A stretch of DNA of 60,434 bases, the filler included, from Sphacelaria rigidula (Eukaryota): the NCBI GenBank assembly GCA_964200075.2. It is 6 parts of 6 records of this genome, joined end to end, with 100 filler letters (N's around TTAATTAATTAA, not from the genome) between each part and the next. Parts side by side here need not be neighbours in the genome. Positions count along the whole stretch, not along the records: positions 20,180 to 30,168 come from CAXNAA020007357.1; 5 more parts are not named here. The stretch is one strand, 5' to 3'. The notes under the pieces were generated by a model. It was not told the DNA's origin and did not search any database. It saw only the letters and a list, made by a program, of their open reading frames with translations. Positions 3,167-50,446 of the stretch are shown piece by piece. A program made the translations under genes and the position numbers. How positions within the stretch are numbered: position 1 is the first letter of the stretch; each line of letters starts with the position of its first letter.

Positions 3167-3496
3167 CTTGGATCCAACCCAGAAGACGACGCATCGGCGC
3201 GACTTCCTCCGCCTCCACCCGACCCAGACCCCCCGCCATCGCCGCCTCCGCTTCGGCCACTGCTCCACCCAGCACTACCGGAGTCCCGCCTGTCGACGGG
3301 GGGCCGTCCGCTCCGTCGCCGACTGGTGTCCAGATCCCGATCCCTGTCCCTGCCCCGATCGCGGTCTCGATCCCGATCGCGATCCCGATCGCGATCCCGA
3401 TCTCTGTCTTTGTCTCTGTCGCGACTGCGACTTCGGCTTCGACTCCGGCTTCGACTCCGGCTACTGTCGCTCCTAGAATATTCCCGACTGCGCCGC
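3167..3496 (-). CDS. Exon of gene A with RS and RD dipeptide repeats (SR-like region)
   Basis: Acceptor gcaagcag|G CGG CGC matches the phase 2 of the previous exon. Encodes RSRSRSRSRDRDKDRDRD...GLDP. Donor CCA AG|gtgtgt. Confidence 0.75.
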
Positions 3497-4544: not shown

Positions 4545-4575
<31 letters not shown>

Positions 4576-4579
4576 CGGG

Positions 4580-4720
4580 GGATGTGCTAGTAATCTCGCA
4601 TGTCGTAGTCATAAGACCATTAACCTCGCATCCCTACAAAGCCGGGAAGGAGCATGCCGGGTTTTCGCCGGAACACGATCGCAATCACCAAGCGTGAAGC
4701 GCCGTGATATGTTCGTGATG
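4580..4720 (+). repeat. Interspersed repeat family R1 copy (starts after a poly-G run)
   Basis: gtcataagaccattaacctcgcatccctacaaagccggg...gccgggttttcgccgg; same sequence at 10091-10155 (-), 30269-30366 (-), 40358-41195 and 43397-43520. Confidence 0.75.
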
Positions 4721-4791
4721 GGGTGGGGGGATAGCGAGGCGGCCGTCTCCACAACACTTCATCATGAATGTCCGTAAATGGACGTACGCAC

Positions 4792-6347
4792 CTGCCGTGT
4801 CCCTTCCCGGACTCCCTCCCACGGTCTCTATTGTCTCCCGCTGCTCGCCGCCCCCCGTCCCCTCCGCTGCCCCCCCTACCGCCGCGGCTACGACTGTCGC
4901 TCCTGCTTTGACTCCTGTTGCTGCTACTGCTCCTGCTTCGCCGCCGCCTACCGCCCCCCCCGCCGCCACCGCCACCGCCTCCACTATCCCTGCTTGTGAA
5001 ACCGCCAACGCTGCGTCCTCGACCATTGGAATGATCTCGTTCTCCGCTCAAGGTTGACCCTTTGCTCCCAGCGGCGGTACCGCCGCTCCCGCCGCTCCCG
5101 CCGGCACTACCACCGCTACGTCGATATCGGTCGTTATCGCGCGACTCGCTCTGGGACTTTGTTCGCTTCCCACCGCCGTTGTCTCCCGCTCCCAGCATTC
5201 CTCCGTCTCCGTAACGTCCCCCCCGGTCCCAGTCCCGGTCTCGCTCCCGGTTGTGCGGAAAGTCACGGCTGTGATGACTGTGATGGTAGTGGTTGCTGTA
5301 GTAGTCACGGTTGCCGCCGGCAGAGGTGGAAGCGGTGCTAGTTGTGGAAGCAGCGCCGGGTGATGGTGGTTCGATATTTTTCCGGCGAGGAATGTCACGT
5401 GCTCCTCCTCCCCCCCCGGGGCGGCGTTCGTCTATGGCTACAGCGGTAGTAGTAGAGGACTCTACCGCGCGCGGCACCCTTTCACTTTTTTGCATATCCT
5501 CTCCCTTGCCACTGCCGCTGCCGCTGCAGTCGCCGCCGGCGTGAAGATCATCATCATTACTATGGGCGTAGCTCCGAACGTGACTGCGCGGCGGCCGTCC
5601 GTCATGGCCGTCGTCACCGCCGCTGCCGCCACTGCCGCCGCGTGCGCGGCCGCTCTCCTTCTTACAGGCACGATCAAGTTCAGGGCTCCAACTTTGGTCG
5701 TCATAGTGACCCATGGGGCGCGATTTCCGTCTTACGCCGGTGGCGCTCCCACTCCGACGGCTGTCGGGTGGACTATTGGCGGGGCTAGCACCACCTCCAC
5801 CATCAACACCCTCACCACCATCACCACCCTTCCGTCGGCCGTGAGTGTGCCGGCGTCCATCATCATCGTCTCGCCGTCTTCCGCTGCTGCCACTGCTAAT
5901 GCCATCCCCTAGTCGGCGGTCCTTCTTCTTGATGATTATTCCGGCGTCGGCTTTACCACCGCCTGTCCGTCGTTCACGGCTGTTGTCACTTCTCCTGCTC
6001 GCCGACTCACTTCTGGATTTGCTGTGGCTGTGGTCTTCTCGGTCGATGCGGCTGTCGGCGACGGAGGTGGTGGAGACACTAGTGGCGGACGACACACTGT
6101 TGCTGATTTTTTTCTTTTTTTTCATCTTCTTGGGCACATCCAATTTCGCCCGCTTTCCTCCTTCGCCGATACTGCCAATGCCATCGTTGTCGATACCACC
6201 GCCGATGTTATTGTCACTGTCTTCTACCTGCCGTTGTTTTCGTTTTATTCCAGCGATGGAGGCAGTGGCAGTGGTACGGGCGGCTGCGCTCCCGTTAGCG
6301 AGGCCGCCATGCTGCTCCCCGCCCTTCTTTTTCGCCTTCGGTTTTTT
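4792..6347 (-). CDS. Exon of gene A (Gly/Ser/Arg/Asp-rich)
   Basis: Acceptor ggaacag|AAA AAA CCG and donor GGC AG|gtgcgt (phase 2). Open frame within ORF 4620..6425. Confidence 0.75.
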
Positions 6348-6794
6348 CTGTTCCATTACATGGGGTATCATCACACACGCACAACAGAAGCAAGAAGCTG
6401 GAAACAAGAATGACCTGTCGTTCATCTACACAGGAGGTTACACATAACCCATGCGGAAATATTTGAGCTTCAAGGCACTCTTCACTATGCACGCATGTTC
6501 GAAAAGGCAGTAGAGCTTGATGTAAGGGAGGAGTCACGCCCCGTGCGTTCCTTGAGGCCGCCATTCACACCGCAGGCCTGTCGAGCAACACGACAGATAC
6601 GCCCACCCAACCACGTCCCGCTACGCCAAAACCCGCCATGATAGTGCATCATAACTCGAACTAGGCAAACCGAATGAGCGCGGTCGTTAACATGTTTGAC
6701 AAACTAACCCATTCGGAGGGACAGTACCCAGGCGAAATGTCCACCACAGGCATACAAAGCACATGTACACACAAGACTATTGATTTAAGCTCAC

Positions 6795-8261
6795 CTTTTT
6801 CGGACCAACACCACTTCTTTTCAAGCCATCATCGCCATCCGTCTTCGACAGCTTCCTCGGTTCCACCGCCCACTGGCCACCGTGTTCCTCGGAACGTTCC
6901 TCGTCAATCAGCTCCCCGTCCGCACCACCACCTATTTCCCGTCGATCCTTTCGCCCACCCTTCTTGCCCCTACGTTTCTCGCTGGACGTCCTTGTAGATC
7001 CAAGCACTCGTCCGCCGGCGGCTTCTCCTTGGACTTCGACACCATCCATGCTGTCGGCGGGTAGCGACTCGACCTCCTCGGTGGAATCTAACAGCACCGG
7101 CTCCGGCTGCGGAGAAGAAGGTACTGCTTCGGGGATTTTCACCGGTTGCTGCTGGTGCTGTTGCGGTGGCGGCAGCGGCAGCAGAGGCGAAGAAGGCAGA
7201 GAAGGCGGAGGGAACGAGGGGACCGCGTTCTCATTTGTTCGTCGCGCTGTTTTCTTGTTCAGGATCGCCCCTTTTTTCTTGTTCCCCACCGACTTCTTGC
7301 TGTTCGCAGTGGTGCTGTCGCTCTTCCTGCTACTGGTCGATTTCGCCTTACCCGCTTTATCGATCTTCTTGTCTTTGTTACTCTTCTTCCCATTCACAGC
7401 CCACTTGACGCCATAGCTACCCTCATCGACCTCACCCGCCGTCCCCCTCTCATGATCAGCAGGCGTATCCACATCCTCGTCTTCGGTCAACCCCAACAAA
7501 GCGGCGCCGTCGGCAGGTGATCCTGGCCGTCCCCGCTCTTGCGATTCGACCCCGCTGTTGCCTTCCCCAACACCCACCCCATACATGTCATCATCATCGT
7601 CACCCTCATCCTCTTCAACAGCTCTACTTGCGAAAACTTTCTTCCGCTTCCCGCCACCATCACTTCCGCCGCCTCTCGAAAACCGCTCATTCCAGGACTC
7701 TGGCTTCACCTGCCGATCATCAGTAGCCGCGGCTCCCGCTGCCGCTGCCGCTGCCGTCGCCGTCGCCCCCGCCTCTCGTCCCTGGACCAGCGCTCCTCCC
7801 TCTCTCTCCTTTAGCTCCTCCTCGACCGCCGTACTGTTCCAACCTCTTTTGCGCTTGCTGCCACTACCGCCACCGTTGACCTCCCACTCAACCGGGCCCT
7901 TCTTTTTCGTTGCCGCCGGCGATTTCGAAGTCGACCTTGAACGACCACGAGCTCCCCCGGTGCTTGTGCCTTGCTTTTTGCTCTTGGCCGCCGGGACAGC
8001 GGCAGCGGAGGCTGTAGCGGAATCTTTCGTTGCGTATCCATGGGTGAACGCGTCGTCATCGGTATAGTCGGCGTCGGTGCCGTGGGGGGTAGCACCTCGC
8101 TTGTCGTCCTTTGGCGCCGTGTCGGCTTGCTGCTTGCTTCCCCCGCCCCCGGTGGCTTTCATTGACGCTCTTGATGTTTTTTTCCCTCCGCTTTTCGGTG
8201 TTGTTGTTCTTGGTTTCTCTGCTGCCGCGGCTTGCTTCTTCTTGGTGCACGCGGCAGACTT
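6795..8261 (-). CDS. Exon of gene A (disordered, Lys/Gly/acidic-rich)
   Basis: Acceptor ttatcgcag|AAG TCT GCC and donor CCG AAA AAG|gtgagc. Phase 0 at both ends; open frame within ORF 6777..9830. Confidence 0.75.
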
Positions 8262-8534
8262 CTGCGATAAGAATTGGGGAAGGGAAACGAAGGAGAGAAA
8301 CGAAAGGAAGTGTGAAGCGAAATCATACACACAAGAGCTTTTAACATGCCACGGGGCTGATCTCAAAAGATCGCCGTCATAAGATCCTGTGTTTGTTTGA
8401 CAGGTTGAGTGGAATGGAGAGTGTATCACTGCAGAAAGAGAACGAGAGAGCAATAGAGCTCTTCCATGACACGACAACAACAACAACAACGACGACGACG
8501 ACGACGACGACGACGACAGGAACAAACTGCTCGC

Positions 8535-9316
8535 CTTGGCATTGCTGGTCACGCTCCCCCCTCTCATCCCAGTCCCTTGGCTCTCATCCTCGCCATGTTC
8601 CCCACCGTCCACCGCGTCCCCTCCTTCACCCTCCTGATCCTCCACAGCAGCCCCGCCATCGGCATCACCCCCGACCGCCGCAACGGTATCTGCATCTGAT
8701 GGGCCCTTCTTTCCCGCGCCCCTCGAGCGCGCGGAGAGCGACCTCCCCTTTTTGCCGCCCCTAGCGGCACCGCCCTTACTTGCTTTTGATCTCGCGGGCG
8801 ACTTCTTGCCAGTCGTTGATGGCGCATTCCCTTCCTCGTCGTCACCGCCGGCGGCGATTGATGCTGCTGCTGCTTGTTCGGTCACTTCTTCTGTCTCGCC
8901 TTCGTCGCTATGTCGGTTTTCGGGTGCGGGCTCTACTGTTCCCTGGTCGCCATTATTATCGCCGCCGCCCTCTTCTTCCTCTTCCCCTACCCCATCCTCA
9001 GAACCTGATTGCTTCGCTTGTTTTTTCCCTGTGCTGCGGCTGCGGCTTCGACTCCTGCTCGCGCTGCTGCTGCCGCCTCTCTTCGCGACGGCGCTTTTAC
9101 CTCCGCCGCGACCCCTCGGCGTACTCCTGGGGGTACTTACTTTGCGTTTCGAGGCAGCACCCCCTTTCGCTCCGTCGCCGCTCGTGGGCCGCCTTCGCTT
9201 CGGCGCGGGAGCCTTACCCTCCTCGCCCCCTTCGCTCTCATCGCCATCACCCGCGACGGAGTCCGCTGTGTTGTCGTCTACTTTATCGCTTCCTGACGCA
9301 TTACCCTCCTCCTCCT

Positions 9317-9353
<37 letters not shown>

Positions 9354-9632
9354 TGCTGCTTCTGCTGCTGCTTCTGCGGCCTCGGCTGCCTTCTTAGCTC
9401 TCCTCTGCTTTCTCTTCTCTTGGGCTGCCTTGGCCCTGTCTTGCGCTTGCTTCGCCTTCTTTTCTCGCAATAGCTTGGCTTTGGCTTGCCGCTCCTCGGC
9501 CTGCTTCTTTTTGGCCTCCTCGGCGGCCGCTTTGTCGGCTTGCCTTTTTGCCTTCGCTGCCGCCGCCTTGACGGCGGATTCTTCGTCTCGAATCTTCTGC
9601 TTAGCATCTTCTTCTTCCTGCTTTTGCTTCGC
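8535..9632 (-). CDS. Exon of a large low-complexity K/E/A/G-rich protein (gene A; 5' end lies beyond the contig end)
   Basis: Acceptor ...gaaaaaag|GCG AAG CAA after a pyrimidine-rich tract. Encodes AKQKQEEEDAKQK...SVTSNAK, with a coiled coil and basic NLS-like PKRRR. Ends at a probable GC donor AAG|gcgagc. Confidence 0.7.
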
Positions 9633-9990
9633 CTTTTTTCGGGATAAAACAAACAAAAAGGAGCAAAACAAAGCAGGCAAGCGTGAAAAAAACATACATA
9701 TACCATCTTCTCTCGCTCCGCTTTCCTTCGGAGAAAGGAAGAACGGAAAAATCGCTCGCAAGTTTGAGCAAAAAAGAAGGGGAGAGGGGGGGGGGGGGGG
9801 ACGCCGCCTCCAATGCTTTTTCTTATCCACTTCGTGTCTTTCGACAAATCGTTTTGCGACAGTTTACGTTTCAAAGTAAGCGCTTATACGAATACGTGTT
9901 CACCGCAACCCAGAGGAACGTTGAACGCTCTAAATGCAAATAAACCGTGACACATCCACCCGCCCCCAACCCACCCCCCAATTCTCCCCC

Positions 9991-10090
9991 NNNNNNNNNN
10001 NNNNNNNNNNNNNNNNNNNNNNNNNNNNNNNNNNTTAATTAATTAANNNNNNNNNNNNNNNNNNNNNNNNNNNNNNNNNNNNNNNNNNNN
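9991..10090. other. Artificial contig spacer (N44-TTAATTAATTAA-N44)
   Basis: Identical 100-nt linker with stops in all six frames, recurring every 10089 bp. Confidence 0.97.
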
Positions 10091-13529: not shown

Positions 13530-16500
13530 GGGGGCTTGCTCGTGTAGAGGGGGCCCAAGTTGGAACCTAGTTTCGCCCTGGGTGATATACCACGTATATC
13601 GTCTATAGTACGCCTCATGACAGGCGTATTTGTCGCTTGAGGGTGAGAAGCGCGAGGGTGGGGATTTGCTTGTGGAGAAAGTCGACCTCGTAATGTTTCT
13701 TCGCTCTGGGTGTGACTTCGCATGTTCCTCCTTGTATGCGTCATGGCTGACGGGGTTTTGCGTATGGGAGAGGTTGGAGGCCCTAGGGGGCAGGGTAGCT
13801 CATACAAACTCGAGTTTGGCATTCGATGTCGCCCTGGCGGCATATGCGTGGGAATGGAGACTAGTAGAGAAGAAGGGCGTGCTTGTTGAGAAAATGCGGC
13901 GTGATAGTTGCCGTCGCCCTCGGTGGTGTACACCGTATTTCGCATACCGTATACCCCGTAGTAGGCGGGGTTCGCAGCGGAAGGGGGTCAGGGGGCCTGG
14001 GACGGGAGGGGTAGGTTGTCGGAGAAGTCAAGCTTGGGATTTGTCGGTGGCCTGGCGGTATACGCGAGGGAGCGGGGACGGGGAAAGGAGTTTGATGGTG
14101 GAGAGGGAGTCGAGGTTGGGGTTTGTTGTCACCTAGGCGGTTCATGCAGTGGCATGGGAATGGGGAAGAAGAGAGCACGCTTGTGAAGTAGGTGGAGGTC
14201 GGGATTTCTCCTCGTCCTGCAAGGTATACTCTGTGTTATCACCTATGATGTAGCACGCAGTAGGCCGAATATACACAGGACGGGGGACCGGGGGGAAGGG
14301 ACGAGGGCTTGCTTGCGTAATAATTTGAGTGTAGGCCTTGCTGTTCGCCCTACGTGGTGCACGCGTGAGAGGGCAGGCGAGGAAGGGAGAGGGCTAGCTC
14401 TCAGAAGAAATGGGGCTTGAGATTTTCTGGCGCTCTACGTGTGGTATTCCATATATCACCTATGGTATACCGCGAGGCGGGCGGAATTGGCATGTGAATA
14501 GGAAGGGTGAGGGGCCTGGCTCGCGTGTTCCAGAAATCACGGTTGGGACTCGTTGTCGCCTTGGGCGGTGTAGGCACGAGGCGGCAGACAGGGATGGGAG
14601 ACGACCGCCTCGCGAAGGAAGTCGCGGTTGGGCGTTGTTGGAGCCCTGAGTAGAGTATTCCGGATGTGATGTGTGGTATCCCGCGTGACGGACGGAGTTA
14701 GCATATGGGGGTGGAGGAGGAGCGGGGCAAAACCCGCTTGTTGGGGACGCAGAGGTTGGGATCGTTGTCGCCCTGCGTGGTGTACACAAGAGAGGCAGGT
14801 GGGGGTAGGACAGGGCCGTGTCGTGCAAGGAGTGAAGCTTGGGGTTTGTGTGGCATCCTGGTGGTGTAGACTTGAGAGGGCAGGCGGGGATGGTAGAGGG
14901 CTGGCTCGGGATTCGTTCGTGCCCTGGGTGAGGTACTCCACATATCACCCATGGTACGCCGTGCGAAGGGAAGAATCAAACGTATGGGGGCGGCGGAGGA
15001 GGAGGGACAGCGCTTGTTTCTTATGCAAGTAGAGTTTGATGTTTGTTGTCGCCCCAGTGTTGTACGCGTGAGAGGGCAGACGGGGATGGTAGAGGGTCGG
15101 CTCGTGGCGAAATGAGACGGCGATTGCACGCACTGAGCTAGGTACTCCGTATATAGCGAATGATGTGCCACGTGTCTGACGGAATTGACTTGTGTGGGAT
15201 GGGAAGGGAGGGCACAGGCCTTGGTTGTTGAGGAAGTACAGGTTGGGCTCCGTTGTCGCCCCGGCGGTGCACGCACCGGAGGGCAAGGTGGGGAGCAAGA
15301 GGGCTGGTTCGTGGAGGAGTACGCCTCGGGATGTATTGGCGCCCTAAGTGTGATACGCGGTATATGGGGTATGTTATGCCGCATGGAGGGCGGCGTTGAC
15401 GTGTGTCAGATGGGAGGGGGGAGACAAGACTCGCTAGCTGACAAGGTAGAGGTTAGGATTTGTTGTCGCCCCGATGGTGTGCGCGTGAGAGGGCAGAATG
15501 GGCTGGAAGAGGGCAGGGTCGTGGAGAAGTACAGCCGGGGATGTATTGGCGCCTTGATTGAGACACTCCGTATATGGGGTATGGTATGCTGCGTGGCGAG
15601 TGGCGTTGACGTGTGTGGTATGGGAGGCGGGGGCGTGACTTGCTTGCTGAGGAGGGAGGGTTTGGATGGGAAGGAAGGGGGCTGGTCCGTGGAGAAAGTC
15701 GAGGTTCTGATTTTCGTGGAGCCTTGAGTGAGATACTCCATATATGGCCTGTGGTGCCGCGTGGCGGGTGGCGTTGACGAACGGGGGTGGGAAGAGAAGG
15801 GTACGGCGCTCGCTTGTTAAAAGAGTCGAAGTTGGGATCCGAGGTCGCCTTGGTGGTCGCTTGGGAGGGCAGGCGGGGATGGAAGAGGGCTGACTTGTGG
15901 AGAAGTAGAGCTTTGCGTGTAGGACCTAGGATATGCCGCGTGGCGGGCGAAATTGATGTGTGTGAGATGGCAAGGGGGGCACAGGGCTTGCTTGCTGAGG
16001 AGATGGAGGTTGAGATCCGTTGTCGCCCCGGTGGTGTGTACGCGTGAGGGGGGCGAATGGGAAGGGAGGGGGCTAGGTCGACGAGCAAGTCGAGGATCTG
16101 GTATGTGTGGCGCCCTCAGTGAGGTCCTCCGTATGTGACCTATGGTATGCTGCGTGGCGGGCTGCGTTGACGTATGAGGGTAGGGCAGTGGGGGGCAGGG
16201 CTTGCTTCTTGGGAAAGTCGACGATGGGATCCGTTGTCGCCTTAGTGTTGCACGCGTGAGTGAACAGACGGGGATGGGGGAGGGCTGGTTCGTGGAGGCA
16301 GCCGAGGTTAGAATGTGGTGATGCCGTGTGGCGGGCGGAAGTGATGCATGGAGGTGGGCACAGGGGTTGATCGTGGGGGAAGTAGAAGTTGGGATCCGTT
16401 GTCGCCGTGGTAGTGTACGCTTAAGAGGGCAGGCGGGGATGGCAGAAGGCTGGGTCGTGGAGGAGGAGAGGTTGGGACTATCGCCGCCCTAAGTGAGGTA

Positions 16501-16870
16501 CCTTGTCTATGTCCTATGGTATGCCGCTTGGCTGCCGGAGTGAACGTATGGAGATGAAGGGGGAAGGAGGGTACAGGGCTTGCTTGTTGGGGGAGTCGAA
16601 GTTGGCACCCGTTGTCGCCCTGATGGTGCACGCGTGAGAGGGTAGATGGCGACGGGAGAGGGCTGGCTGGTGGAGACAATGGGAGAGGGCTGGCTGGTGA
16701 AGACAATGAGAGAAGGCTGGCTGGTGGAGACAATTGAGGTCGGGAATTGGTGGTGCAGTAAGGAAGATACTCCGTATGCGACCCACAATGGTATGCCGCA
16801 TGGCGGGCAGAACTGACGTATGGGGATGGGGAACGGGAGGGTACATAAGGCTTTCTTGAAATGTAAGGCG
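13530..16870. repeat. Complex diverged G-rich satellite, ~210-bp unit
   Basis: Recurring anchor gttgtcgccc..ggtg..cgcgtgagagggcag at about 14342, 14552, 14763, 15045, 15252, 15462, 15843, 16019, 16233, 16397 and 16610. Confidence 0.85.
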
Positions 16871-20079: not shown

Positions 20080-20179
20080 NNNNNNNNNNNNNNNNNNNNN
20101 NNNNNNNNNNNNNNNNNNNNNNNTTAATTAATTAANNNNNNNNNNNNNNNNNNNNNNNNNNNNNNNNNNNNNNNNNNNN
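20080..20179. other. Artificial contig spacer
   Basis: Same 100-nt linker. Confidence 0.97.
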
Positions 20180-20689
20180 GTTTTTCCACACATACATACA
20201 CGACAAACTCACCTGTTTCGAACCGACCACTGACAGGCAGATTGAAATTGGGACATCACGACGCTGATCCAGGGGCTCAGGCCTATGTCGATGACCAAAC
20301 ACAAACAGGTGATGGTTTTCGACTGTATTATGTTGGAGACTACGTCGTCTCTCTGTCCCGTGAACCTCAACACATTCATGTGAATCTTGTGAGACGGAAC
20401 GGATCCCCCGCCCTCACTGGACGGCATCGTCGACTAAACCAATCCCAACCGAACCCCACACAGTATTCCCCCCTTTGATCAGACCGATGTATTCGTCCAT
20501 GGGGGTCGGCAATCCATTCCCCTCACGTCCTATGCATATCTCGATGTCCTCCCTGGTCAGTTGTTAGGTTTTGCTCAAGCGCCCCTCCTGCGGGCAGCCT
20601 TGTCGAATGTATGTCTGAAGGTGCCACCGCAAACATCATCAGACAGCTGAGAGACAAACGGTTCCACTTCGTTCGACAAAACTGACCCC

Positions 20690-21935
20690 ATGGTTGTAGA
20701 CGAATCGACTGATGCGCCTGACACAAACCCTTCGACTGCCTTACTAGATACATTTTCGCCAGAGCAACGTGTTACTTTTCAACGATTATGGGATGAAATT
20801 CTCCCCCATTTGAGACACCTTGTGTTTGATTCATCTGGTGAGGGTTGGACACCCACGGTGATTGATCGGTTGCGCTCCATCTTGATACGATACTCTGGAC
20901 GGTTTTCCAAATCGTCAACAGATTTGGGCCGCTGCAACACTATACCGTTCAAAATCAACATTCCTGATGGTACGACACCTATCGCCATGCGTCCGTACCG
21001 TACAAACCCTCTACTAGCGGGTAAAATTCAAGTAATTCTCGACGAATACTTGTCCGTCGGGTTAATACGGCACTCAGCGTCTCCGCGGGCCTCACCTTTG
21101 GTAGTCGTCCTGAAGAAGAATGGTAAGATCCGACTGACCGTCAATTATCAACGATTGAACGCAGTCACCAAAATCGCACGTCTACCTCTTCCCCGGATAG
21201 ATGAAATCATCGACTCTCTCAGCGGGGGCAAAGTATTTTCAAACTTCGACATGCAGTCCGGTTACGACCAACTGGTGATGGATCCGCACTCTATCGAGCT
21301 GACGGCGTTTTGCACCCCGTCAGGTCCATATGAGTGGCTGGTCACTCCACAAGGTGCCGCTGGCGCCCCAGGAGCATTTCAACGTGTGATGTTTCGCGTC
21401 AATGATGGACTGTTCAAATGCCGCATGTACCTCGACGATGCGGTGGTTCACGGCAGTACACCTGCTGAACACGTCGAACATTTGGCGTCCTTCTTTGCTC
21501 GTTTTGAACAACACAATTTGAAGCTCGCCCCATCTAAATCCCGCATTGGAGCCACGCGCATCGAGTTCCTAGGCCATTGCATCAGCCCTGAAGGTCGTAG
21601 CTCCAACCTCGACAAAGTTGCCGCACTTAGAGAGATGCCCATGCCACGCGATGTCTCTCAACTGCGCTCTTTACTCGGTGGTTTGAGTTACTATCGTCAA
21701 TATCTGCCAAATTCAGCCCAAACTCTAAAGCCTCTCACCACCCTCCTCAAGAAGGGGGTGAAATTCGTGTTCACGTCGGCAATGGAAAACATTGGACGAG
21801 AGCAGCTCAACACAATGTCAAAGCCGCCAATTCTGGTTTTTCCAGACAGGACAGCTGCTGAAAATGGCTCCCGTCCATTCCGACTTCACATGGATTCTTC
21901 GAAAATTGGGTTTGGCTGCACACTGGAACAATGCT
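20690..21935 (+). pseudogene. Gypsy pol: reverse transcriptase and start of RNase H
   Basis: Motifs RPYR, SPRASPLVVVLKKNGKIRLTVNYQRLN, LPRIDEII, FDMQSGYDQ, PQGAAGAPGAFQ, YLDD, FLGH, LRSLLGGLSYYRQY, LHMDSSKIGFGCTLEQ. Confidence 0.92.
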
Positions 21936-22994
21936 GGTGTTCGCCCCATTGTATATCTGAGCCGAACCACCCACCCAAACGAACAGATCTGGTTCGTCAT
22001 GGAACAAGAAGCCGGTGCAATTGTTTGGGGAGTGCGACGACTCCGGCAAGATTTGTATGACCTCCCGTTTGTGATTCATACAGATCATAAGTCTTTGGAA
22101 AACCTCGCCAAAATGGCGGAACACAACGCCCGGGTTCAACGCTGGTTTGAAATCCTGTCTTCCTACAGCTTCACGTTGAAGTACCGCACAGCTCCCCAAA
22201 ACGCAAACGCCGACTTCCTGTCACGCTTGCCCTTGCCAGCCCAACCCATCGACAACTCCGCCTTGGGTCGCATCACAGACCCCACCGAAGACATCGTATA
22301 TATCATAAGCACCAATGGTCATCGCGGACTCTATGCACCACTCGCACTGAACCAAAACTCGGCACTTGTTGAAAATAAGCTGACGCCTTCGGCTCACGCT
22401 TCTGTATTGGGCAGTTTGGCCCCACGATCGTTGTGTTCAGTCAGGAGTGAAATTCGTGCAACTACCGGCGGGTATGATCAATTTCGTGCGTCTGGTCATC
22501 GGATGGTTTGCACTGTAGAGCCGGTTTCTACTCACTGTGTCCTCCCGGTTCAAGTCCGAGACCTCATCTCGAGCCGGACCCGAGGACGCTGGGTCGCGGA
22601 AACGGCTGCCGCCCTGGCAGCAGCCGGCCCAGACCTCCCCATCCCCAACCCCATTCCACTCCCCGATAGCCTCCTTGCTCCCCCGTTACCTCCACGGCGC
22701 AAAGCCCCCAGAAAATCGACAACTTCCAAACCACCTCTGCCCACCATAGTCGAGACCTCGACTGTGCCTTCCCCACCCCGTGATGGTACCACCTGCGGCA
22801 CCACACCATCCGACACCCTCAATAACGTAGGAATAGAGGTGAACGTTCCGTTTGAGAATACACTGACCACCCCTTCTGCCCTTGATCCAAATAACGCCTC
22901 GTGTCCATCCCACAGTGATTCGATGCCCTGCGTTTTGGACAACCCCTCCGATAGTGTATTCAGGAAACTGACCCTCTCTTCTCACGCCGATTGA
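21935..22994 (+). pseudogene. Gypsy pol: RNase H (frameshifted) and Pro-rich linker
   Basis: RPIVYLSR, EQEAGAIVWGV, TDHKSL, RVQRW, NANADFLSR. Confidence 0.88.
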
Positions 22995-22999
22995 GCCCG

Positions 23000-24265
23000 G
23001 GAACAGCAAGCTGAACCTGCTTGTAGAGCAGCTATACGTTATCTATCCAAAGGATGCCCCTCCCCCTTTCCAGAAACTGAGTTCCCTTTGCCAGTAGGGC
23101 CCCACCGAGCCCCCACACAGGATGGGGTTACTGAATTATCGCGTAAAGGCATGCTTTACACGGATGACGATGGCGTTGTTCTTTTAGTTCACCGGCCCCC
23201 CACGAACCCTCCTGGAGGGAAATCTACAAGTAGTCACTCCCGTTTGTTGGGTGATGCCCCCGTTCATATTTATGTTCCGATGCTTCTGCGTCCATGGGTT
23301 CTCCATGAATTCCACTCACAAGCATCCACACATCTGCAGGGCGTCGCTAGGACATCCCAGATGCTTCAGCGTTTTTTTTGTGGATTTGTATGGACCAATG
23401 TGTGCGTTGGTGGGTTCGGCGGTGTCTTCTTTGCCAAGCACGCAAAACTTCGAGTCAAACAGCTAGATGGCCGGTAATCCCTATGCCCCTTCCCAATGAG
23501 CCTGATGAAATAGTTTCATGGGACTACTTTGGCCCCCTGCCCCTCACTGATAGTGGTAGCAAGTACATTTTGTTGTTTACGGATCGGTTCAGTCGATATG
23601 CTGCGGTTAATGCTGTTTCGGAGGCCAACTATAGTGCAGAAGGGACTGCCAACGTCCTTGTGTACACATACATCCCTCAGTGGGGTGTTCCCAAACGTTT
23701 GCTATCCGATAACGGCCCATATGTCGCCGGCAAACTTTCTGCGGCAATCAGTAATCTCCTGGGTGCCCATCGTATTTTTACTAGTTCATACCACCCGTCA
23801 ACAAACGGCGGGGCCGAACGAGTAAATCACACGATGGCGCAAATGCTTGCCACAGTGACCAATGAGCGACAAACGGACTGGGACCTGCACTTACCCCTTG
23901 TCCAAATGAACTACAACAACTCCGTCAATGCCGCCACAGGCTTGGCTCCCAATGAAGTTCATATTGGTCGTATGCCCAGGCTGCCATTGACAGTGTTCGA
24001 CAGGAAACCCCCTGGTGGTCATCAGAGTTTGGATCGGGATATTGTGGAGTATCATATGTCTGTTAGTAATCGTCTTCGTCTTGCATATGAGGTGGTACGG
24101 GAGCAGAACTTGATCAACGCAGCAAAGGTAGCTAAGGCAAACAGCGTGTTGGATGATGCAGTGAATAACCGTCCGGTGTGGAAAGTAGGTGAATGGGCAT
24201 GGGTGTATAACGATGTGAGAACTGTAACCCAAGGTGCAAGCTCTGCTGAGTCATCGTCGGATTAG
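23000..24265 (+). pseudogene. Gypsy pol: integrase (HHCC zinc finger plus DDE core), frameshift near 23378
   Basis: HEFHSQASTHLQG...VRRCLLCQARK, WDYFGPLP, DRFSRY, LLSDNG, YHPSTNGGAERVNHT, YNNSVNAATGLAP. TAG at 24263-24265. Confidence 0.92.
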
Positions 24266-25171
24266 GTGTTGAAGTCGAAGCTTTGCTTGAATTGGACTGG
24301 TCCTTGGAAGATTTTGGCAGTGTGGCCCTGTGATACCGCACCCGACGATAAACCAGTAGGTGAGAAGCTTTTGTATTTGGACTTTCCCGCGGATGAACCT
24401 GGCGTCAAACCCAAAAACCGGGTCTCGATGCTTCGGTGCAAGCCGTGTCTGCCCCCTCACGACATTAGTGATCTGCCTAAGCAATTGCCAATGGGGCTCA
24501 GTCAGTATGTGCTAACCAGGTATGCGGCGAAATCCCCACCGTACCACATGACGGTTGAAGACGCTGACGGCCCTCTTGAACGTGGAGTGGTAGATCGCAT
24601 CTCGGGCCATCAATTAGTTGGAGGTCGAGGCGGTAAAATTGCGGTTATGTATCAGACACACTGGAAAGGCCTCATGCGTTTTACGTGGGAACGGGAGGAG
24701 GATTTGCGTCATTTTCGAAGAGATATACTTTCATATTGGGTCGGAGATGTCGTCCAACACCGCCCGTTGAACAAACGATATAGGTCTATGCGAAAAGGCG
24801 CAGCAGCTCGTGAGCTGGCCCGACAACACTCGGCACGATTTGTCATTTCGGGCTTTAGTCTCATTTCTCGTTCGCAATACCTGCGCTCGTTTTCGAAGAA
24901 ACGTTTGCCGAAAGGTGCATATTTTTGGTACAGGGCTATGAATTCGCGGTGGTGGCTGGGGAAGATTCATTTGATAGATCCTGAGGCAGACGATTCCTCC
25001 TACATCCGCTTCCTCGATGATCCGGGTCCTCTCAAGATCCGTCTTCACGACGATTACTACATCGAGATGCCGACCGCTCGCCGAGGATCTTGGTGCCTAC
25101 AACGACACGACAAAGGGGACATCGACACGGCTGTCTTGCGCAACCCCGATACGGCGTGGGACACGGAATAA
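24266..25171 (+). pseudogene. Integrase C-terminal part: GPY/F-like module, chromodomain-like and PWWP/Tudor-like segment
   Basis: KLCLNWTGPWKI (GPY/F-like); VDRISGHQ...MYQTHWKGLMRFTWEREEDL (chromo-like); GAYFWYR...WWLGKI...YIRFLD. In frame with the integrase across one stop. Confidence 0.75.
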
Positions 25172-26872
25172 TCTTGATAGCGAATTGCGTTCCTTCCGAT
25201 TGTTTTGGCGTTCTTCAAACCCCCCTGTTCTTGTCTTGTCGTTGGTGTCGTTTTCTCAAGTACCGTTGTCAGTCGGTTGTCTGCGTTTTTCCCTACCGCC
25301 AATCGTCGTCCCCCTGGTCTCGTCGTGTTTTTTTTTCAGAATTCCCCCCCGCTTCCCCTTGTCCTCTCGTGGTCTCGTTTCCTTGAACCCCGTGTAGCCG
25401 GTTGCCCACGTTTCTCTCGGCAGTACCCCGTAGCCGCGTATGTCGGTGTTCTGTAGTGAACCGTTGCCGCGTATGCCTGTTACTGAATGAAGCTTTTGTG
25501 TTCTCTTTTTCTTGTTTTCTGTTAGCTCTTGTTTTTTTCTGTTTTTTTTTGTCCTCTGTTTTTTTTTTCTTCCCTGTTTCCCCTTCTTCCTTCCTTGCAT
25601 GGCCACCTGTTTTCCTCGTTTTTGTCTTTGGTTTTCTTTTTGTTTGTCCTCGGAGGCGGCCGACGCACACCGTTGTATTCTTCAGCACGTCCCGTACCAA
25701 CCCCTTTCCGGGGCACATACCCGGTGTGTGCAATCGCTTTCTTTGTTTCGTGCTTTTTTGTTTCGTTTTTGACAGCTTGATACCGTTGGACTCACCTTGG
25801 TTTTCGATGACCGGGATATGTGTTGAATGTCCAACAAGCCCTCTCCTTGAGTACCGTCGCAGATTCATGTGTAATTGCTCGCTGTATCAGGTGTCCCATG
25901 TTCGGGGATGTTTCTTTTCTCTTGGATTATGTTCAGTTCCATTGCTACAACAGTCCGCCAAAACAAAAAGCAAAAACAAAAATCGTTTTGTTTTTCGCAA
26001 GCTCGAGGTCGTACATCTGGTCCGCCGCTTCGGAAATCAGTACGGTGGTTCGTTTTTGTTGTAGGGTTATTGCTGGCAAATTATCGCGTTGATGTGCTCG
26101 GCGGGGGTTTATCCTTCCGTTTGTATGCACACCCTCTCGATTTTCTCGTCTGAACGGGCATATATCTAAGAGCGGACCGCATCGGCCCCTCTTTCTGTAT
26201 ACTTGCCGTTGTTCACCACGAACGCATCGGATTACCCGCCTTGGATTTATCTCCTACGGCTGTGTGTTATTCGTTGACGCTTTGTGGGACGATGCGGAAA
26301 CTTTTTCAATTCGATGGGCCGCCCTTCATCGTCACGTTGGTGCATCATGTTGCCTCACGGCTGCATGTTGATTTTGGTTTCCGGTGTCTTTCGCTCAGCG
26401 ATTTTCTTTTCCCGCTTGAGCATTCAACACCGTGGCGTTCTACTGATGAACAAACTGTACGATCGTTTGTGCTTCCCCGGCACTGTGAAACGCCTTGGTG
26501 GGCTGCTTAGCAACCTCTGACAGCGGAACTGGACGTCTATTGAGACATGAGTTCCCCTTCGCATGATAGCAGTCAAGCTTCATATCAAGTTTTGTAGCGG
26601 ATGGACTACCGGCTTGTTTTTTCGCTGCTTCAGTTTTTTTTTTTGGCGGATTTGTTCTGGATTCCCAAACATTTCGTAGCTTCTGGCGCTATTTTTCCAA
26701 GGGCTGTCGATTCTTGCGTTTTGCACACCCTTCGAATTTTTTGTTTCCTTCCATATATCGTGTCACCCTCTAAGTCCCTGTCACAATACTCCCCCCTTGA
26801 CGTGTCTCACATTTTTCGTTTTATTATGATCTCTTGTTTTGCTTTTTTTTTCTGTGGTGTGGGGGAATGAAA

Positions 26873-27549
26873 TGTGTGGGTAAAGCAATCTCGTTTCACT
26901 GCGTTTTCCTGCGATTGCTTTACCCATTGGAGGCTAGTGTGATATGATGTGACTGCAGGACGTAGCCATGATTTCGAGCAAAGGTGACATTGAATGATGG
27001 ACATTTTCATGTTCAATTAGCGGAGACTTCGCTGCCCTTGAGGTTGACGTTCTACGGAGAGCATGTATTTGAATTCGAAAAAAGGTGGTGACCCAACCAT
27101 GGCATGAATCGAGGAGCACGGCTTTTGGATTTTATGATATGACCTTAGCTTATGTTGATTCAGGGGGCGGCAAAACACGTTCGAAATAGCAGCCCCTACG
27201 ACCCCACTCTCTTTTCATTCCCGGTTTTGGCTGCGACCCAACAGTTCCTCATTGGAGTATCTACAAACCGCGAGAAAGTGAGTCCCAGAGATAAGAGCAG
27301 TAGTCGGACTGCTGTTTTGTCTGGTGTGTTTTCTTGGTTTCGGTTTTGGCTTATGTCGATTTGTGTTGTATCCCCCTGTTCTGTAAATGAATTTGGATAC
27401 AATCAATTGCGTGATAAAAGTTCTATTCTGGTCTGTATTATTTGCTTGTTGTCTCCTTGTGTGAAAGCAACACGAGAGCGACTGTGGTCAGCCTGCGCTA
27501 CTGAGCTGAGTAAACAAACAACGTACACAGAGGTCTGAACCTTGGAACA
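26873..27549 (+). repeat. Putative LTR
   Basis: Starts TGT after the purine-rich gtgggggaatgaaa; ends ACA and is followed within 4 nt by TGG (PBS-like). There is no second copy in the contig to confirm it. Confidence 0.35.
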
Positions 27550-28558
27550 ATCTTGGTGAACACCATTACACCCTTCTCAAGGCGCCGTCACCCTCTATCG
27601 CATCACAGTCGGAGCTCCCGCACTGCCTCTGCAATAATTTTGTTTTTGGGTTGGGTTGTGTTCGGACTGCCGAACTGCGTGTACACTACACTACTATTAT
27701 GTGCCTCGTATGCGCATCTAGTTTGTTTGTTCATCGCCTAGCCGTCTGTAGCTGTCGCTCTGTCATCTACCCCTGGCGATATGAGTTCAAGGGCCTCTGA
27801 TACAGTAGACGCTCGCACCCTGCGCCGACCCCGACGCGAACGTACGCGCGCAATAGCACTTGCCCCCCCACCATCCTCACCTGCTCGTCCCAGCTGCCTC
27901 TTTGTGGTAACTGCCCCAGTAATGATACCCATCTTCTCTGTAGCGGATGCGAGTCACCATGTAGAGCCCAATTTATACCGTGACTCTCCTGCCCCATTAC
28001 ATTTTTTCCCACATGAGCTGCCCGTACATTATCAGCTACCAACTCTTTTCTACCACCACCGACACTGTATCAGCGTGCATCCTTTCGCTACACCCACCCC
28101 GCCGCATGTACCGCCGGCCTTTTATTCATCAGTAGCTAATGTTGACCATTTCTTGCTGTCTCATAATATGGTCACCGTGCAGCACAGTTGTTTTGTGCCC
28201 AGCCTGGGTGTTGACTGTACATCATCCGACCCCACCCTATACTATGTATGTGAACCAAACATCCGTGATAACACTCCAGTACCACCCTCTTCCCAAGGTC
28301 CTGTGTCCATCCAGTACATTTCGTGGACCCCGGTATGGACAACTCGTCCACACACTCTCTCTCGTACCTTCTTAGATCGCCCCTCCCTGTCTTTCGCGGG
28401 GGCCTGGCCAACCCCCACCACGCCCACAGCCTCCTACAATAGATTATTTTCCTCTTCCATTTCCAATGCAACACCCCGGTCACTCATTACCACCCCGGTC
28501 ACTCATTACTCTCCTTTCTACACTGACTATGACGCGCACCCGCGCAGGTACACAAGCG

Positions 28559-30168
28559 ATGTCTAATTCCCCGGCTTCGCTAGAGCTACGTGCCGATGAA
28601 GAAGGCACATCCTCTGCCGAATCCGGTGAACCACTGCTTGCGTCGGACACAGTCTTGCATGATCCAGTCATTGAAAGTGTAGAGGATGATGATGATGCCC
28701 AATCTCAGTCGGGAGGAAGTCCCCTCTCTATAGTGCCCGACGTACAGCCGGGACTTGATTTCCCACTGTATGCCGCCACCGCTCAAACTCTTACCAGTGA
28801 CACTAAACAGGTCGACTCTACTGCTAGTGGTGACCATTCGGTTCGTGATCATTCCCCTGCTGAGCCCTACGTTTCTAACGTCGTAGCCTCGACGAGTGGT
28901 CGTGAGTCGGGAAAAAAACCCGTCTACGCGCCTACCCAAGAAAGCACGCGACAAAGCTAAGACCCAGTTCAAACATAGCCGTCCCGCTGCTATTCCAGCC
29001 CACGCGTGGGATAAATTTTCCCGCGAGGAACAAGCCGCGTACTGGGATGACTTGTTGGCCCAGACCGTACAAGCGCAAGTAGAACGTAAGAACCGTGAAG
29101 CTTTCGAGCACGCTCAAGAAATCCAACGCGTCCGTCGTGAGGTCGAAGCCAAACGCAAAGCCTAGGCGGAGGGGTAGAACAAGGAAGGCCGCCTCCTCCG
29201 GCAAACCGCCAAGACTTTGCAGGCGGCTAAAGCCCAATATGAACAAGCCTTACAACAACACAACACGACGGCGGAACACAATCCACCTCTCGCATACCCG
29301 TCACTCAATCTTCACTGGACGAACAGATGAAACAATTACGTCTGCTCACCCGCGATCCCATCGACGTTGAATCCGATTCTGATTACTCATCCACTGGTTC
29401 ACCTGCACTTCCCAACGCCACTCCGAATGTCGCCCCTCTAGCCACGGGACTACCTCCCATGCCACCTGAGACGATCGCATCCGGCGTTTCAACCACGTTT
29501 GGTGTGCCCCCCCCAAGTTCACCGCGGCAAAACGCCCCCTACATTTGCCTCCACAGCGAACAAATCACTCTCCACTAAACCCACTCACCCAACCCTGGTT
29601 CCTAAGGCTACTCGTTCCGACGGTCTTGATTTTTCTGGTGTAGAAACTTAGGCAGCTGTTCCCCTCTACGATTTTGTCCACGACCCTGACACCCTCCTTA
29701 CCTACGCGTGTCAGGCACAGCGCCTTCCTGTTCCCGTCACTGACAATTCGATCAAGATCCTCAATTGGTTTCCGAAACACACCGAGACCGGAACGTTAGC
29801 AGGCGTCGTTCAATGCATACCTTCCAACCCACGTTCCGAAATTAGTCTCGCGCTACGGCATGAGTACGTCGGACCCCTCATCGGGCTATTCAAGGAAATT
29901 GAGCAGGTACGCATGACAGTACACGGCCCTGCTGATGGTACGGATCGTTCATACCCTACTACCACTAGTTCCCTTCAGACAGGTCACGTAGGGCACAATC
30001 CAATGGACAGTGACGGCAGTTGGACTGTTCAAGGGAAAGGGAAAAACCGTCTCAAGGATAGTGGTAAATCTCACATTTCGCAGCAGTCACGATCTCGCCG
30101 TCATCGTCGCCCTTCATTCGACAGTGAGTCGGACAGCACTGACGGGTCTCATAATGACACGAGTGCGG
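28559..30168 (+). pseudogene. Decayed ORF1/gag-like reading frame, probably the N-terminus of a second LTR element
   Basis: Broken + frames: MSNSPASLELRADEE..., coiled coil WDKFSREEQAAYWDDLLAQ...RREVEAKRK, then ...LRHEYVGPLIGLFKEIEQV. Lies downstream of the LTR/PBS-like site. No diagnostic gag motif before the contig end. Confidence 0.4.
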
Positions 30169-30268
30169 NNNNNNNNNNNNNNNNNNNNNNNNNNNNNNNN
30201 NNNNNNNNNNNNTTAATTAATTAANNNNNNNNNNNNNNNNNNNNNNNNNNNNNNNNNNNNNNNNNNNN
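30169..30268. other. Artificial contig spacer
   Basis: Same 100-nt linker. Confidence 0.97.
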
Positions 30269-36402: not shown

Positions 36403-38455
36403 CTACCAGACCAAATACATATATTTCAAAACCAAATGCGACTCAGACTTCCACTTCTCATTTCTCAAGCCAAGGGTAAAGACACGGTGAACTTCAGAAA
36501 GATCTTCCGGCAGAGCTTTCGTGAGGATGTCCGCATGCTGTTTTTCGCTGGGAACATGCGTGATCTCGATCACACCCTCCTCGGTCAAATTCCTGAGAAA
36601 GTGATGCCTCACGTCAATATGCTTACTCCTGCACGAGCTAAGTGGATTATCTGCAAGCGCAATCGCACCCTCCTTGTCCTCAAGTACTTCAATCTTACGA
36701 GGCTTCACACTAGACCTAAAGAACTGAAGCATTCCGTTCACAAACAAAGCCTCCTTCACACCATCACCCATCGCAAGATTCTCCGCCTCAAAAATCGACT
36801 GAGAAATGTATTTCTACGTCCTAGAAATCCAGACCACAAGCATGGCAGCCACAAAAACCAACGTTTCCGAAACGGATCTACGGTCAGTGGCCTTGCTTGC
36901 AAGGTCGGCATGTACGTACACCAACGTACCTACGTCCACCGTACTGTCCTGCTTGAACTTCAAAGTTAGATGTGCCGTTTCCAGAAGATAATTCAGAATC
37001 TTCTGGACTGCCTTCCAGTGGCTCTTCTTTGGCTCGTGAGAGTGCCTCGCCACCGCCCGCACAGCATTCGAGATGCCAGGCCTTGTCTGGTTGGCGATCC
37101 ACATCAGGCTCCCCACCACCTCTCGGAACGGCACATCTCCTGCCCCTTCATCCTCCATCAAGGACCTGTTATCGTTGGCAAGGGAAGCAGGGATCGAGCT
37201 GGTGCAACAAATATTGAATCTCTCGAAGCACTCCTGATATAACTCTATTGAGAACCTTAATGGTGCCAGCCTCGCGGTTGCGAATAAGTGCGCAACGAAG
37301 AAAGAACTTGACATCATCCAATTCTTCGTAGGAAGAGAGTCGCCTAGCGCTTCCACAACCACCTTAGCAAGACTCTTAGTTCCTACATACAGAATGGCAT
37401 CCACGTGAATGGCGACCATACCCATCACCTCGTGTCCCATCATAAAACGCAGGACACAGGGATCACACAGAGACTGCTCGAAACCAATCCTCTTCAGGTC
37501 CAACACTAACCTCTTGTAAAATGTTCTAGATGCCAGCTTCAATCCGTACAAATTTTTGTTCAAATGAACAACATTTCCTGACATCGGACCGCAGCCAGGA
37601 GGCAACTTCATGAACACCTCGTGATCCAATTCCGACTGAACCAACGCTTCCTCATTATCCCAGTGGAGTGATTCCAAGTTGTACTTGCACGCCAAAGCTA
37701 CTAGCAATCGCATCGATGCAGCAGTTGCAGTAGGCGAGAGAGTTTCAAGATAGTCCACACCATACTTCTGTTTGAAGCCCTTCGCTACAAGCCTAGCCTT
37801 GGCCTTCACTATCTTCCCTGTTTCATCTGCTTTCCATTTGAAAACCCATCCAGCATCAATCACATTACAGCCTACTGGGATCTTTACTGCTAACGCGAAC
37901 GTTCCTGCTCCTATCAAGCCTTCAAGTTCTGCAGACATGGCTCCATCCCAAATATTTGTGTGCTTCGATTGCCGATCTTCTTGAGAGCTACCAGGCTCTG
38001 ACTCACCATCTTGAACGGGTTCTTTCGGCCATTCCACGGCGTCACGTGCTCTCTGTTCCGCCAAGAGTGCATACAGTATCTCTGATGCGAAGATGGGTCC
38101 GAGAGTGGCCACAAGGCCAGACACGCTCTGCTGATGTATGGCACGGGTTTGCGCACAAGTTCTGCCTTCTCTTACTTCATCATTCTCACGCGCATCGGTA
38201 TTAAAATTAGCAAGCGACATGTCGCGGACGACGAGCGGCTGGAAGAGGTGCCTCCGCCTCTTCCAGCTCTCCCGGCCCTATTGATTTTACCTCATCATCC
38301 CCTCCCGGATCCGCCGTCTCTACTTCCCCTGTCTCGTGCCCTCCCTGCCCCCCCCCTATCTGTCTCAAGTGTTGGAATAGACACAGAGGGAGCCCTTCTA
38401 CTAGAGGAGTTCTTCACAGGCGAGAACGGTACAGAGCTGGACCATGCATGAGACT
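36403..38455 (-). pseudogene. Ty1/copia pol 3' half: linker, reverse transcriptase, RNase H
   Basis: WDGAMSAEL, WVFKWK, KAKARLVAKGFKQKYGVDYLET, LYGLK, HVDA (broken YVDD), FREVVGSLMW...TRP, RRSVS, frameshift, then SKHIDVRHHFLR and QHADILTKAL. Confidence 0.92.
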
Positions 38456-40257: not shown

Positions 40258-40357
40258 NNNNNNNNNNNNNNNNNNNNNNNNNNNNNNNNNNNNNNNNNNN
40301 NTTAATTAATTAANNNNNNNNNNNNNNNNNNNNNNNNNNNNNNNNNNNNNNNNNNNN
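40258..40357. other. Artificial contig spacer
   Basis: Same 100-nt linker. Confidence 0.97.
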
Positions 40358-50346: not shown

Positions 50347-50446
50347 NNNNNNNNNNNNNNNNNNNNNNNNNNNNNNNNNNNNNNNNNNNNTTAATTAATT
50401 AANNNNNNNNNNNNNNNNNNNNNNNNNNNNNNNNNNNNNNNNNNNN
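50347..50446. other. Artificial contig spacer
   Basis: Same 100-nt linker. Confidence 0.97.

Follow-up and report, generated by a model that had tools for sequence, protein, structure and literature searches.

One stretch of DNA from the brown alga Sphacelaria rigidula, 60,434 nucleotides long with its spacers (GenBank assembly GCA_964200075.2; hereafter the window), raises the question of whether the integrase of a Ty3/gypsy retrotransposon can end in two chromatin-reader modules rather than one. The original prediction on this DNA placed a chromodomain and then a PWWP- or Tudor-like domain at the end of such an integrase, behind a GPY/F-like motif. Judged from its sequence, the region belongs to a dead brown-alga-type Ty3/gypsy copy, of whose pol it forms the 3′ end, and we think it fairly probable, by analogy with known integrase tethers, that this pol encodes a two-part tail acting as a putative chromatin tether. 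What structure models and comparison with relatives establish is that both folds are predicted, in which order they stand, that intact elements conserve them and that they are under purifying selection.

The tail of the polyprotein (Pol) is read in frame +2 as a stretch open for 301 codons (24266-25171), and both peptides quoted in the original prediction occur in it: VDRISGH...WEREEDL at tail residues 108-146 and LPKGAYFWYRAMNSRWWLGKI...RFLDDPGP at residues 213-254, separated by 66 residues where about 55 had been given. The GPY/F-like motif lies upstream of both, as claimed; in translation it reads GPW (tail residues 11-13; 24299..24307, plus strand), and it is kept as GP[WFY] across the family alignment. 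AlphaFold2 (AF2) and Foldseek, both suggested at the time, were run on the tail and gave two confident predicted folds. The AF2 model, built from a 21-sequence alignment, is unstructured over residues 1-100 and confident over residues 101-292, with a predicted local distance difference test (pLDDT) of 68-93. Together with the structure search VIA, these tools bear out a tandem of Royal-superfamily folds, the first that of a chromodomain and the second a five-stranded, SH3-like barrel of Tudor type.

The first module covers tail residues 100-160 (24566..24748, plus strand) and is a chromodomain fold by AF2, VIA and a profile match, with Pfam below threshold. Its AF2 model has strands at residues 108-119, 122-132 and 138-142 and a helix at 143-158. 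VIA superposes it on Chp1 with Z 5.9 and a root-mean-square deviation (rmsd) of 1.5 Å over 53 of 55 residues, on HP1 with rmsd 1.4 over 51 and on Polycomb with rmsd 1.5 over 49, and the family profile, searched against the PDB, matches the MPP8 chromodomain at E 0.0016. A conserved linker with a long helix (residues 169-186) follows at 24749..24850 on the plus strand (AF2 pLDDT 73-89); its conserved alignment columns are N168, M174, R175, A178, A179, R181 and E182.

The second, Tudor-like (Royal/SH3-type) module spans tail residues 195-292 (24851..25144, plus strand; AF2, Foldseek, VIA and profile). In the AF2 model a short strand and a helix lead into the five-stranded barrel (strands 218-222, 228-236, 243-248, 254-258 and 275-280), and a short helix closes it at 285-290. 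Modelled on its own from 56 sequences, the domain reaches a pLDDT of 88.2 (86-88 across all five models) and a predicted template modelling score (pTM) of 0.78. Every Foldseek match listed to rank 16 is a PHF1 or PHF19 Tudor domain at probability 1.0, with rmsd 2.1-2.5 Å over 45-47 columns, 23-27% identity and template modelling (TM) scores, on the target, of 0.57-0.62. VIA, a search independent of Foldseek, finds PHF19 at Z 5.1 and rmsd 2.3 over 55 of 57 residues, and about 32 of the 50 VIA matches listed are, by entry title, Tudor, Agenet, PWWP, chromo-barrel, MBT or SAWADEE chains (Z 4.2-5.6). Searched against the PDB, the family profile reaches the PHF19 Tudor at E 0.041-0.055, below usual significance. 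Neither the retroviral integrase C-terminal domain nor the HP1 chromoshadow domain stands out as a match to the barrel in these fold lists. ESM Atlas scores for residues 195-300 (best 0.84, a Spin/Ssty cluster at 0.80) all lay within the range of shuffled sequences and were left unused.

As a fold class, a small Royal/SH3-type barrel is well supported by the models. Its sub-family is best described as Tudor-like, nearest to the Polycomb-like (PCL) Tudors at scores below the usual thresholds, and the barrel is a member of no curated family. With the Tudor domains of PHF1, PHF19 and MTF2 (PDB 4HCZ, 6WAU, 4BD3, 5XFR) it has the five-stranded barrel in common, and with those of PHF1 and PHF19 also a DGL-aromatic-aromatic-LGKI strand motif and an F-x-D motif; the leucyl-patch positions and two cage positions of these Tudors are conserved in the barrel family. 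It differs from these Tudors by an additional strand and helix at its N-terminus, by a loop of 16 residues ahead of the last strand and in lying within a transposon polyprotein, whereas theirs sit in accessory proteins of Polycomb repressive complex 2; all of these matches are sub-threshold, at E 0.015-0.05. The PWWP identity that had been offered for the module found no specific support: one of the 56 members touches Pfam PWWP (PF00855, E 0.12), the flanking prolines are absent and one short helix follows the barrel. The PWWP-type motif site reads L-W-W-L, its two Trp being kept in 91% and 88% of the 56 sequences. PWWP motifs tolerate variation at their outer positions, and PWWP chains rank no higher than Tudor chains in the Foldseek and VIA lists.

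On the barrel, L227, W229, L230, F248 and D250 align by hidden Markov model (HMM) to PHF19 L54, Y56, L57, F74 and D76, which with the offset of 9 are PHF1 L45, Y47, L48, F65 and D67; the latter are contact residues according to the available text of PMC7492083. These five columns are 73-88% conserved in the 56 sequences, and the surface with which PHF1 and PHF19 hold the histone peptide is, as far as the alignment goes, the best-conserved part of the barrel. W220, Y221, Y244, Y264 and W275 are 82-89% conserved in the same set and might form a different pocket.

Several results weigh against taking the two modules as chromatin readers. At the level of fold, Pfam Chromo (PF00385) stays at 16.4 bits against a gathering cut-off of 25.1 (E 0.009) and is matched by 13 of the 21 family members at E <= 10 (best E 2e-4); most full-length relatives have no Chromo match at E <= 0.1, and the chromodomain as a single sequence retrieves nothing from solved structures at E <= 10. 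For the barrel, Foldseek E values are 0.015-0.03 with no row at or below 0.001, all VIA Z scores, those of the chromodomain included, fall under 8, where the tool warns of a mere common arrangement, and the highest of them, 6.4, belongs to a bacterial TraI translocation-signal domain and not to a histone reader. A single-sequence search of solved structures with the window barrel returned no Tudor and only chance-level DNA ligase rows (E > 1), and against Pfam it matches no family at E <= 10. Sub-threshold Pfam hits among the 56 members are SH3_VIII-1_N in 10, Agenet in 6 (best 0.012) and PWWP in a single sequence, with no Pfam Tudor family at E <= 10. At the level of the binding site, the chromodomain keeps one of the three HP1 cage aromatics (Y24, W45, Y48), the central W132. 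The barrel keeps two of the four of PHF1 (W41, Y47, F65, F71), namely W229 and F248, with A223 at the W41/W50 position and, inferred by ungapped extension, P254 probably at the F71/Y80 position; MTF2, with three of four cage aromatics, is already described as a weak binder (PMC7492083, available text).

The central W132 of the chromodomain is invariant in all 21 family members. Cage position 1 is Leu in the family and Gly in the window, opposite Tyr of Swi6 and Phe of 2m2l, and position 3 is Leu, opposite Tyr of MPP8; these alignments rest on weak matches (E 0.0016-0.85). The plant 'group II' retrotransposon chromodomains likewise have no first and usually no third cage aromatic, and the parts of PMC3350952 available describe them as found only in plant elements. 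Chromovirus chromodomains have the same fold at the same C-terminal place on a Ty3/gypsy integrase, but theirs is a single chromodomain without a second barrel. For 24900-25110, on which the original prediction had staked an SH3-like barrel with an aromatic cage, the barrel is predicted, whereas the canonical cage is incomplete by alignment. Of the reader role claimed for both modules the folds are upheld, but neither canonical cage is complete; the tail is a putative reader, and it may or may not read methyl-lysine. Because both cages are incomplete, the ligand need not be a canonically read trimethyl-lysine. The text of PMC12477816, as far as available, describes Ectocarpus as being without H3K9me1/2/3 and H3K27me3, its repeats being associated with H3K79me2 and H4K20me3; non-canonical cages fit a host without H3K9 and H3K27 methylation, a fit that does not of itself show the ligand.

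Does the tandem belong to a living family or only to this copy? Proteins homologous to the 300-amino-acid (aa) tail number 24 of about its length and 13 that exceed it, with identities of 46-76% and a coverage that is mostly 95-100%; two brown algae, Sphacelaria rigidula and Ectocarpus sp., are the sources of those best matches that carry a name. A search of 1.84 billion representative proteins with the last 106 residues returned 154 matches at E <= 0.001, 42 of them at E <= 1e-10; these are protein clusters, most of them short pieces encoded on short contigs. Across 56 aligned sequences, the barrel's aromatic and Gly/Asp positions show 80-95% conservation. Alignments with polyproteins of 1670-1848 aa reach the extreme end of the tail, the polyproteins stopping 7-12 residues further on, and the second module is indeed conserved at the extreme C-terminus of intact relatives, as the original prediction needed.

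Intact members encode a NADAR-protease-reverse transcriptase-RNase H-integrase order. Two relatives in the same 90% cluster as P0028, P0191 (2075 aa) and P0194 (2065 aa), open with a NADAR domain at residues 27-176 (E 3.6e-49 and 1.7e-49). Among five loci from public contigs (L001-L005), NADAR is found in L001 (L001:2036-2959, E 1.8e-52) and L003 (L003:973-1420, E 1.9e-45). L003 is a single open frame of at least 2385 aa that runs through NADAR, reverse transcriptase, RNase H, integrase and tail to the contig end; in L001 the frame at 3293-8203 closes with a stop at 8201-8203, the tail match ending at 8179.

Family HMMs from the first alignment, run over 195 collected proteins, find the barrel in 186. 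In 62 of these the barrel is preceded by 114 residues or more; a full chromodomain is present in 41 of the 62, and the remaining 21 comprise four with a partial chromodomain, seven with the linker only, three non-Pol proteins and seven with neither, at least two of which look like out-of-frame translations of decayed copies. In the other direction, 47 of 48 proteins with a chromodomain and at least 135 downstream residues have the barrel. None of the 154 barrel matches is an integrase tail clearly lacking a chromodomain.

Purifying selection on the tail is seen in the coding sequences, by estimates that are themselves rough. Ratios of nonsynonymous to synonymous substitutions (dN/dS, Nei-Gojobori) were taken from the window copy and the five loci, and saturation of dS in most pairs, which makes the values rough, counts against leaning on them. 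Where dN/dS is estimable, the integrase tail gives 0.04-0.08, the chromodomain 0.09-0.11, the barrel 0.13-0.28 and the linker 0.17-0.43. One integrase-tail value stands out: L002 and L005 are nearly identical (dS 0.04), and their dN/dS there is 0.48.

Three collected proteins call for separate mention. P0036 (Ectocarpus sp., 1094 aa) is the sole exception among the 48, having no barrel after the linker by family HMM. In the gene model P0051 (373 aa), the linker and Tudor-like module are fused with TIMP and WSC domains, most likely because the prediction ran across a transposon fragment and became a chimera. P0059 (1142 aa, 11 matched stretches) is a low-complexity repeat protein unmatched by the family HMMs and was discarded as a false hit.

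The copy in the window is degraded. Six pieces, each about 10 kb long, make up the window; they are separated by spacers of the form N44-TTAATTAATTAA-N44 at 9991-10090, 20080-20179, 30169-30268, 40258-40357 and 50346-50446, and features cannot be traced across these points. The element lies in the piece at 20180-30168, whose start cuts the retrotransposon; its 5′ end in the window falls about 420 residues into Pol, at the piece boundary. The degraded pol (20182..25171, plus strand) was delimited by tblastn of three full-length relatives (P0030, P0028 and P0035) against the window and by the list of open reading frames (ORFs). From 20182 to 25165 it is collinear with full-length relatives by tblastn, spread over three frames: the frame changes near 20427-20471, 21931 and 23375, from tblastn and ORF coordinates, and the ORF list gives in-frame stops at 22992-22994 and 24263-24265. 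Because it is split over three frames and carries two in-frame stops, we take the copy to be dead.

Along this pol, all on the plus strand, reverse transcriptase (RVT_1, Pfam PF00078, E 5.3e-25) is encoded at 21110..21577, residues 154-309 of ORF 20651-22060, and RNase H (RT_RNaseH, PF17917, E 2.1e-20) at 21930..22166, residues 57-135 of ORF 21762-22994. A partial integrase zinc-binding motif and the catalytic core occupy 23366..23797 in ORF 23351-24265, the former as Pfam Integrase_H2C2 (E 6.6e-4, residues 6-34) and the latter as rve (E 1.3e-7, residues 49-149) at 32.2 bits against a cut-off of 32.6. The pol stop codon stands at 25169..25171, eight codons past the Tudor-like module. The window search found no pair of long terminal repeats, and tblastn of the tail against the window found no copy besides itself. 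The spacer between RNase H and the integrase zinc motif (about 22170-23360 in the window, residues 670-1022 of P0028) is about 350 residues long, partly proline-rich and without a Pfam match, at about 34% identity between window and relatives.

To which lineage does the element belong? The accessible parts of PMC12477816 report that the Ectocarpus Gypsy lineages all carry chromatin-reader fusions and that three of them have putative chromodomains, these chromodomain-bearing lineages being unrelated to chromoviruses or Chronos. Lineage IV (for example Gypsy-12_Ec32) combines an N-terminal NADAR in Pol with a putative C-terminal chromodomain, while Gypsy-10_Ec32 has a Tudor domain (cd20401) at the C-terminus, described there as the first such domain on a transposable element; the annotation table lists TUDOR for Gypsy-10_Ec32 only. 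Our element shares with lineage IV the brown-alga hosts and a chromodomain after the integrase, and relatives collinear with the window copy (P0191, P0194, L001, L003) have NADAR at the start of Pol; in the window the copy is truncated short of the NADAR site, so that its own NADAR is inferred from relatives. On these sequence grounds the family of the window element matches the NADAR/chromodomain lineage IV type and not the chromoviruses, which agrees with the original prediction that the lineage was no standard chromovirus, a point that itself draws on what PMC12477816 says, in the text available, of the NADAR-bearing brown-alga lineage. The difference from lineage IV is that the published text, as far as it was accessible, names a chromodomain alone, with no added Tudor-like barrel.

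Identity with the Gypsy-10_Ec32 Tudor lineage was considered as well. Both are brown-alga Ty3/gypsy Pol proteins ending in a Tudor-type fold, but Gypsy-10_Ec32 is described as a separate lineage without NADAR in which the Tudor domain replaces the chromodomain, and it is set apart here by that published description (PMC12477816, available parts). We set this identity aside because the relatives carry NADAR, which the same source assigns to the chromodomain lineage, the comparison being by description only.

Taken singly, both kinds of domain have thus been published (2025, PMC12477816, as far as available), the chromodomain for this lineage and a Tudor domain for another Gypsy lineage of brown algae. 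Neither the tandem of chromodomain and barrel on one integrase nor this barrel family is reported in the text, annotation table and captions of that paper that were available, and its Fig. 1C and Fig. S1B might show the additional domain. The accessible parts of two centromere papers from the same groups and of a pan-eukaryote survey of transposon fusions with chromatin domains likewise report neither this barrel family nor the tandem. In the literature searched on native PWWP or Tudor domains on retrotransposon integrases, PMC12477816 alone was relevant.

The barrel is not confined to Pol. Three proteins, P0048 (828 aa), P0054 (612 aa) and P0185 (832 aa), have the same barrel at their end and neither integrase nor chromodomain nor linker; the body of each is coiled-coil-like and rich in Arg and Ser, and their barrel begins exactly at the 'GY.LV' strand that opens the Pol module. 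Because it ends proteins that have no integrase, the barrel can be regarded as a portable unit. In a tree of 53 barrels, the non-Pol barrels are nested within Pol barrels and adjoin the Pol-type fragment P0044, with support of 96/77, not starred, and under midpoint rooting only. A word-index search with the N-terminal part of P0048 returned only itself. A role of P0048 and P0054 as the Gag proteins found no support: tblastn at E <= 1e-5 matched only the C-terminal module in L001-L005. Their N-terminal parts have no match in the roughly 2 kb upstream of pol in L001 and roughly 1 kb in L003, contigs that lack a whole gag. The three proteins may stem from gag-like ORFs of non-autonomous elements, from deletion derivatives or from host genes.

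What, then, would the tail do? In the reading we prefer, it would consist of a cage-reduced chromodomain, a conserved helix and a Tudor-like barrel behind the GPY/F-type region; it would anchor the integration complex to chromatin, through nucleosomes or through factors bound there, and this tethering may bias the insertion sites of new copies, as with chromovirus chromodomains and the PWWP domain of LEDGF. LEDGF/p75 is a host protein recruited in trans by the integrase of human immunodeficiency virus (HIV). In both cases a Royal-family barrel would link integrase to chromatin, but the present element supplies it in cis, as the closing domain of its own Pol, and PWWP membership is unsupported. 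A bolder form of the tether, which we consider unlikely, makes the tail a self-built bivalent reader of a repeat-chromatin state specific to brown algae (for example H3K79me2, H4K20me3 or several marks combined on a single nucleosome) that sends copies into silenced DNA, with the barrel as a portable part. We hold it highly improbable that the resemblance of the second domain is accidental, or that it is a functionless C-terminal extension of a decaying copy: the window copy is dead and the initial match was made by eye only, but the barrel has 154 homologous clusters, intact open Pol frames end in it, its key columns are 80-95% conserved, dN/dS is below 0.3 where estimable and the predicted fold is confident.

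A second question is what a genuine barrel would bind. There is a small chance that this SH3/KOW/Tudor-like barrel binds nucleic acid and not histone marks, lending the integrase extra affinity for DNA or RNA, for instance through a grip on target or viral DNA like that of a second integrase C-terminal domain. The incomplete canonical cage would suit such a role, nucleic-acid barrels reach the Z scores of histone readers (Shuguo PWWP with single-stranded DNA 5.2, Spt5 KOW 5.1, UvrD/PcrA Tudor 4.2-4.5, TraI 6.4), and in the PHF20L1 Tudor DNA binding is reported to override methyl selectivity (2026, PMC13285377, available text). The nearest matches in sequence and in Foldseek are nevertheless the histone-binding PCL Tudors, on whose peptide-binding face the conserved residues fall; retroviral intasome chains appear only at probability 0.11-0.23 and rmsd > 16 Å, and the element already has a GPY/F-type C-terminal region upstream. 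We regard it as quite unlikely that the barrel is a protein-protein adaptor, with the chromodomain serving as scaffold only, that engages a host factor other than a histone, such as a methyl-arginine protein or a tether bound to chromatin, or helps integrase to multimerise. Methyl-arginine-binding Tudors of SMN/TDRD3 type are in the fold list (Z 4.4-4.9), both cages deviate from the methyl-lysine pattern and the barrel also ends the integrase-free P0048, P0054 and P0185, but no partner is known or predicted, and the tandem with a chromodomain, like the reader fusions described for brown-alga Gypsy elements in the available parts of PMC12477816, points to chromatin.

Other pieces of the window hold features of their own. 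An array of diverged direct repeats (period about 165-215 bp, 60-80% identity) lies within G-rich sequence at 14357-16686 in the neighbouring piece, and a Ty1/copia reverse transcriptase (Pfam RVT_2, E 1.2e-32) at 36817-38277 on the minus strand in another. Two long open frames of 601 and 1028 aa occupy GC-rich DNA at 4620-9863 (minus strand) without a Pfam match, the 1028-aa frame giving a low-complexity translation rich in Lys, Ala, Glu, Gly and Ser. An additional N10 run is present at 4495-4504.

Fusions of integrases to readers are the clearest natural cases of transposons choosing their landing sites, and those described so far add a single domain, which is a chromodomain in the chromoviruses and in Chronos, CoDi and ECR elements, and a Tudor domain in one Ectocarpus case. 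Because profile libraries miss the barrel, reader fusions in transposons are probably under-counted. If our reading of the tail as a chromatin tether is true, a conserved reader-type tandem on one integrase would be the first natural bivalent tether. In a host whose heterochromatin is without the usual chromodomain marks, it would make two matters testable, namely what marks transposon-rich chromatin and how integration is targeted.

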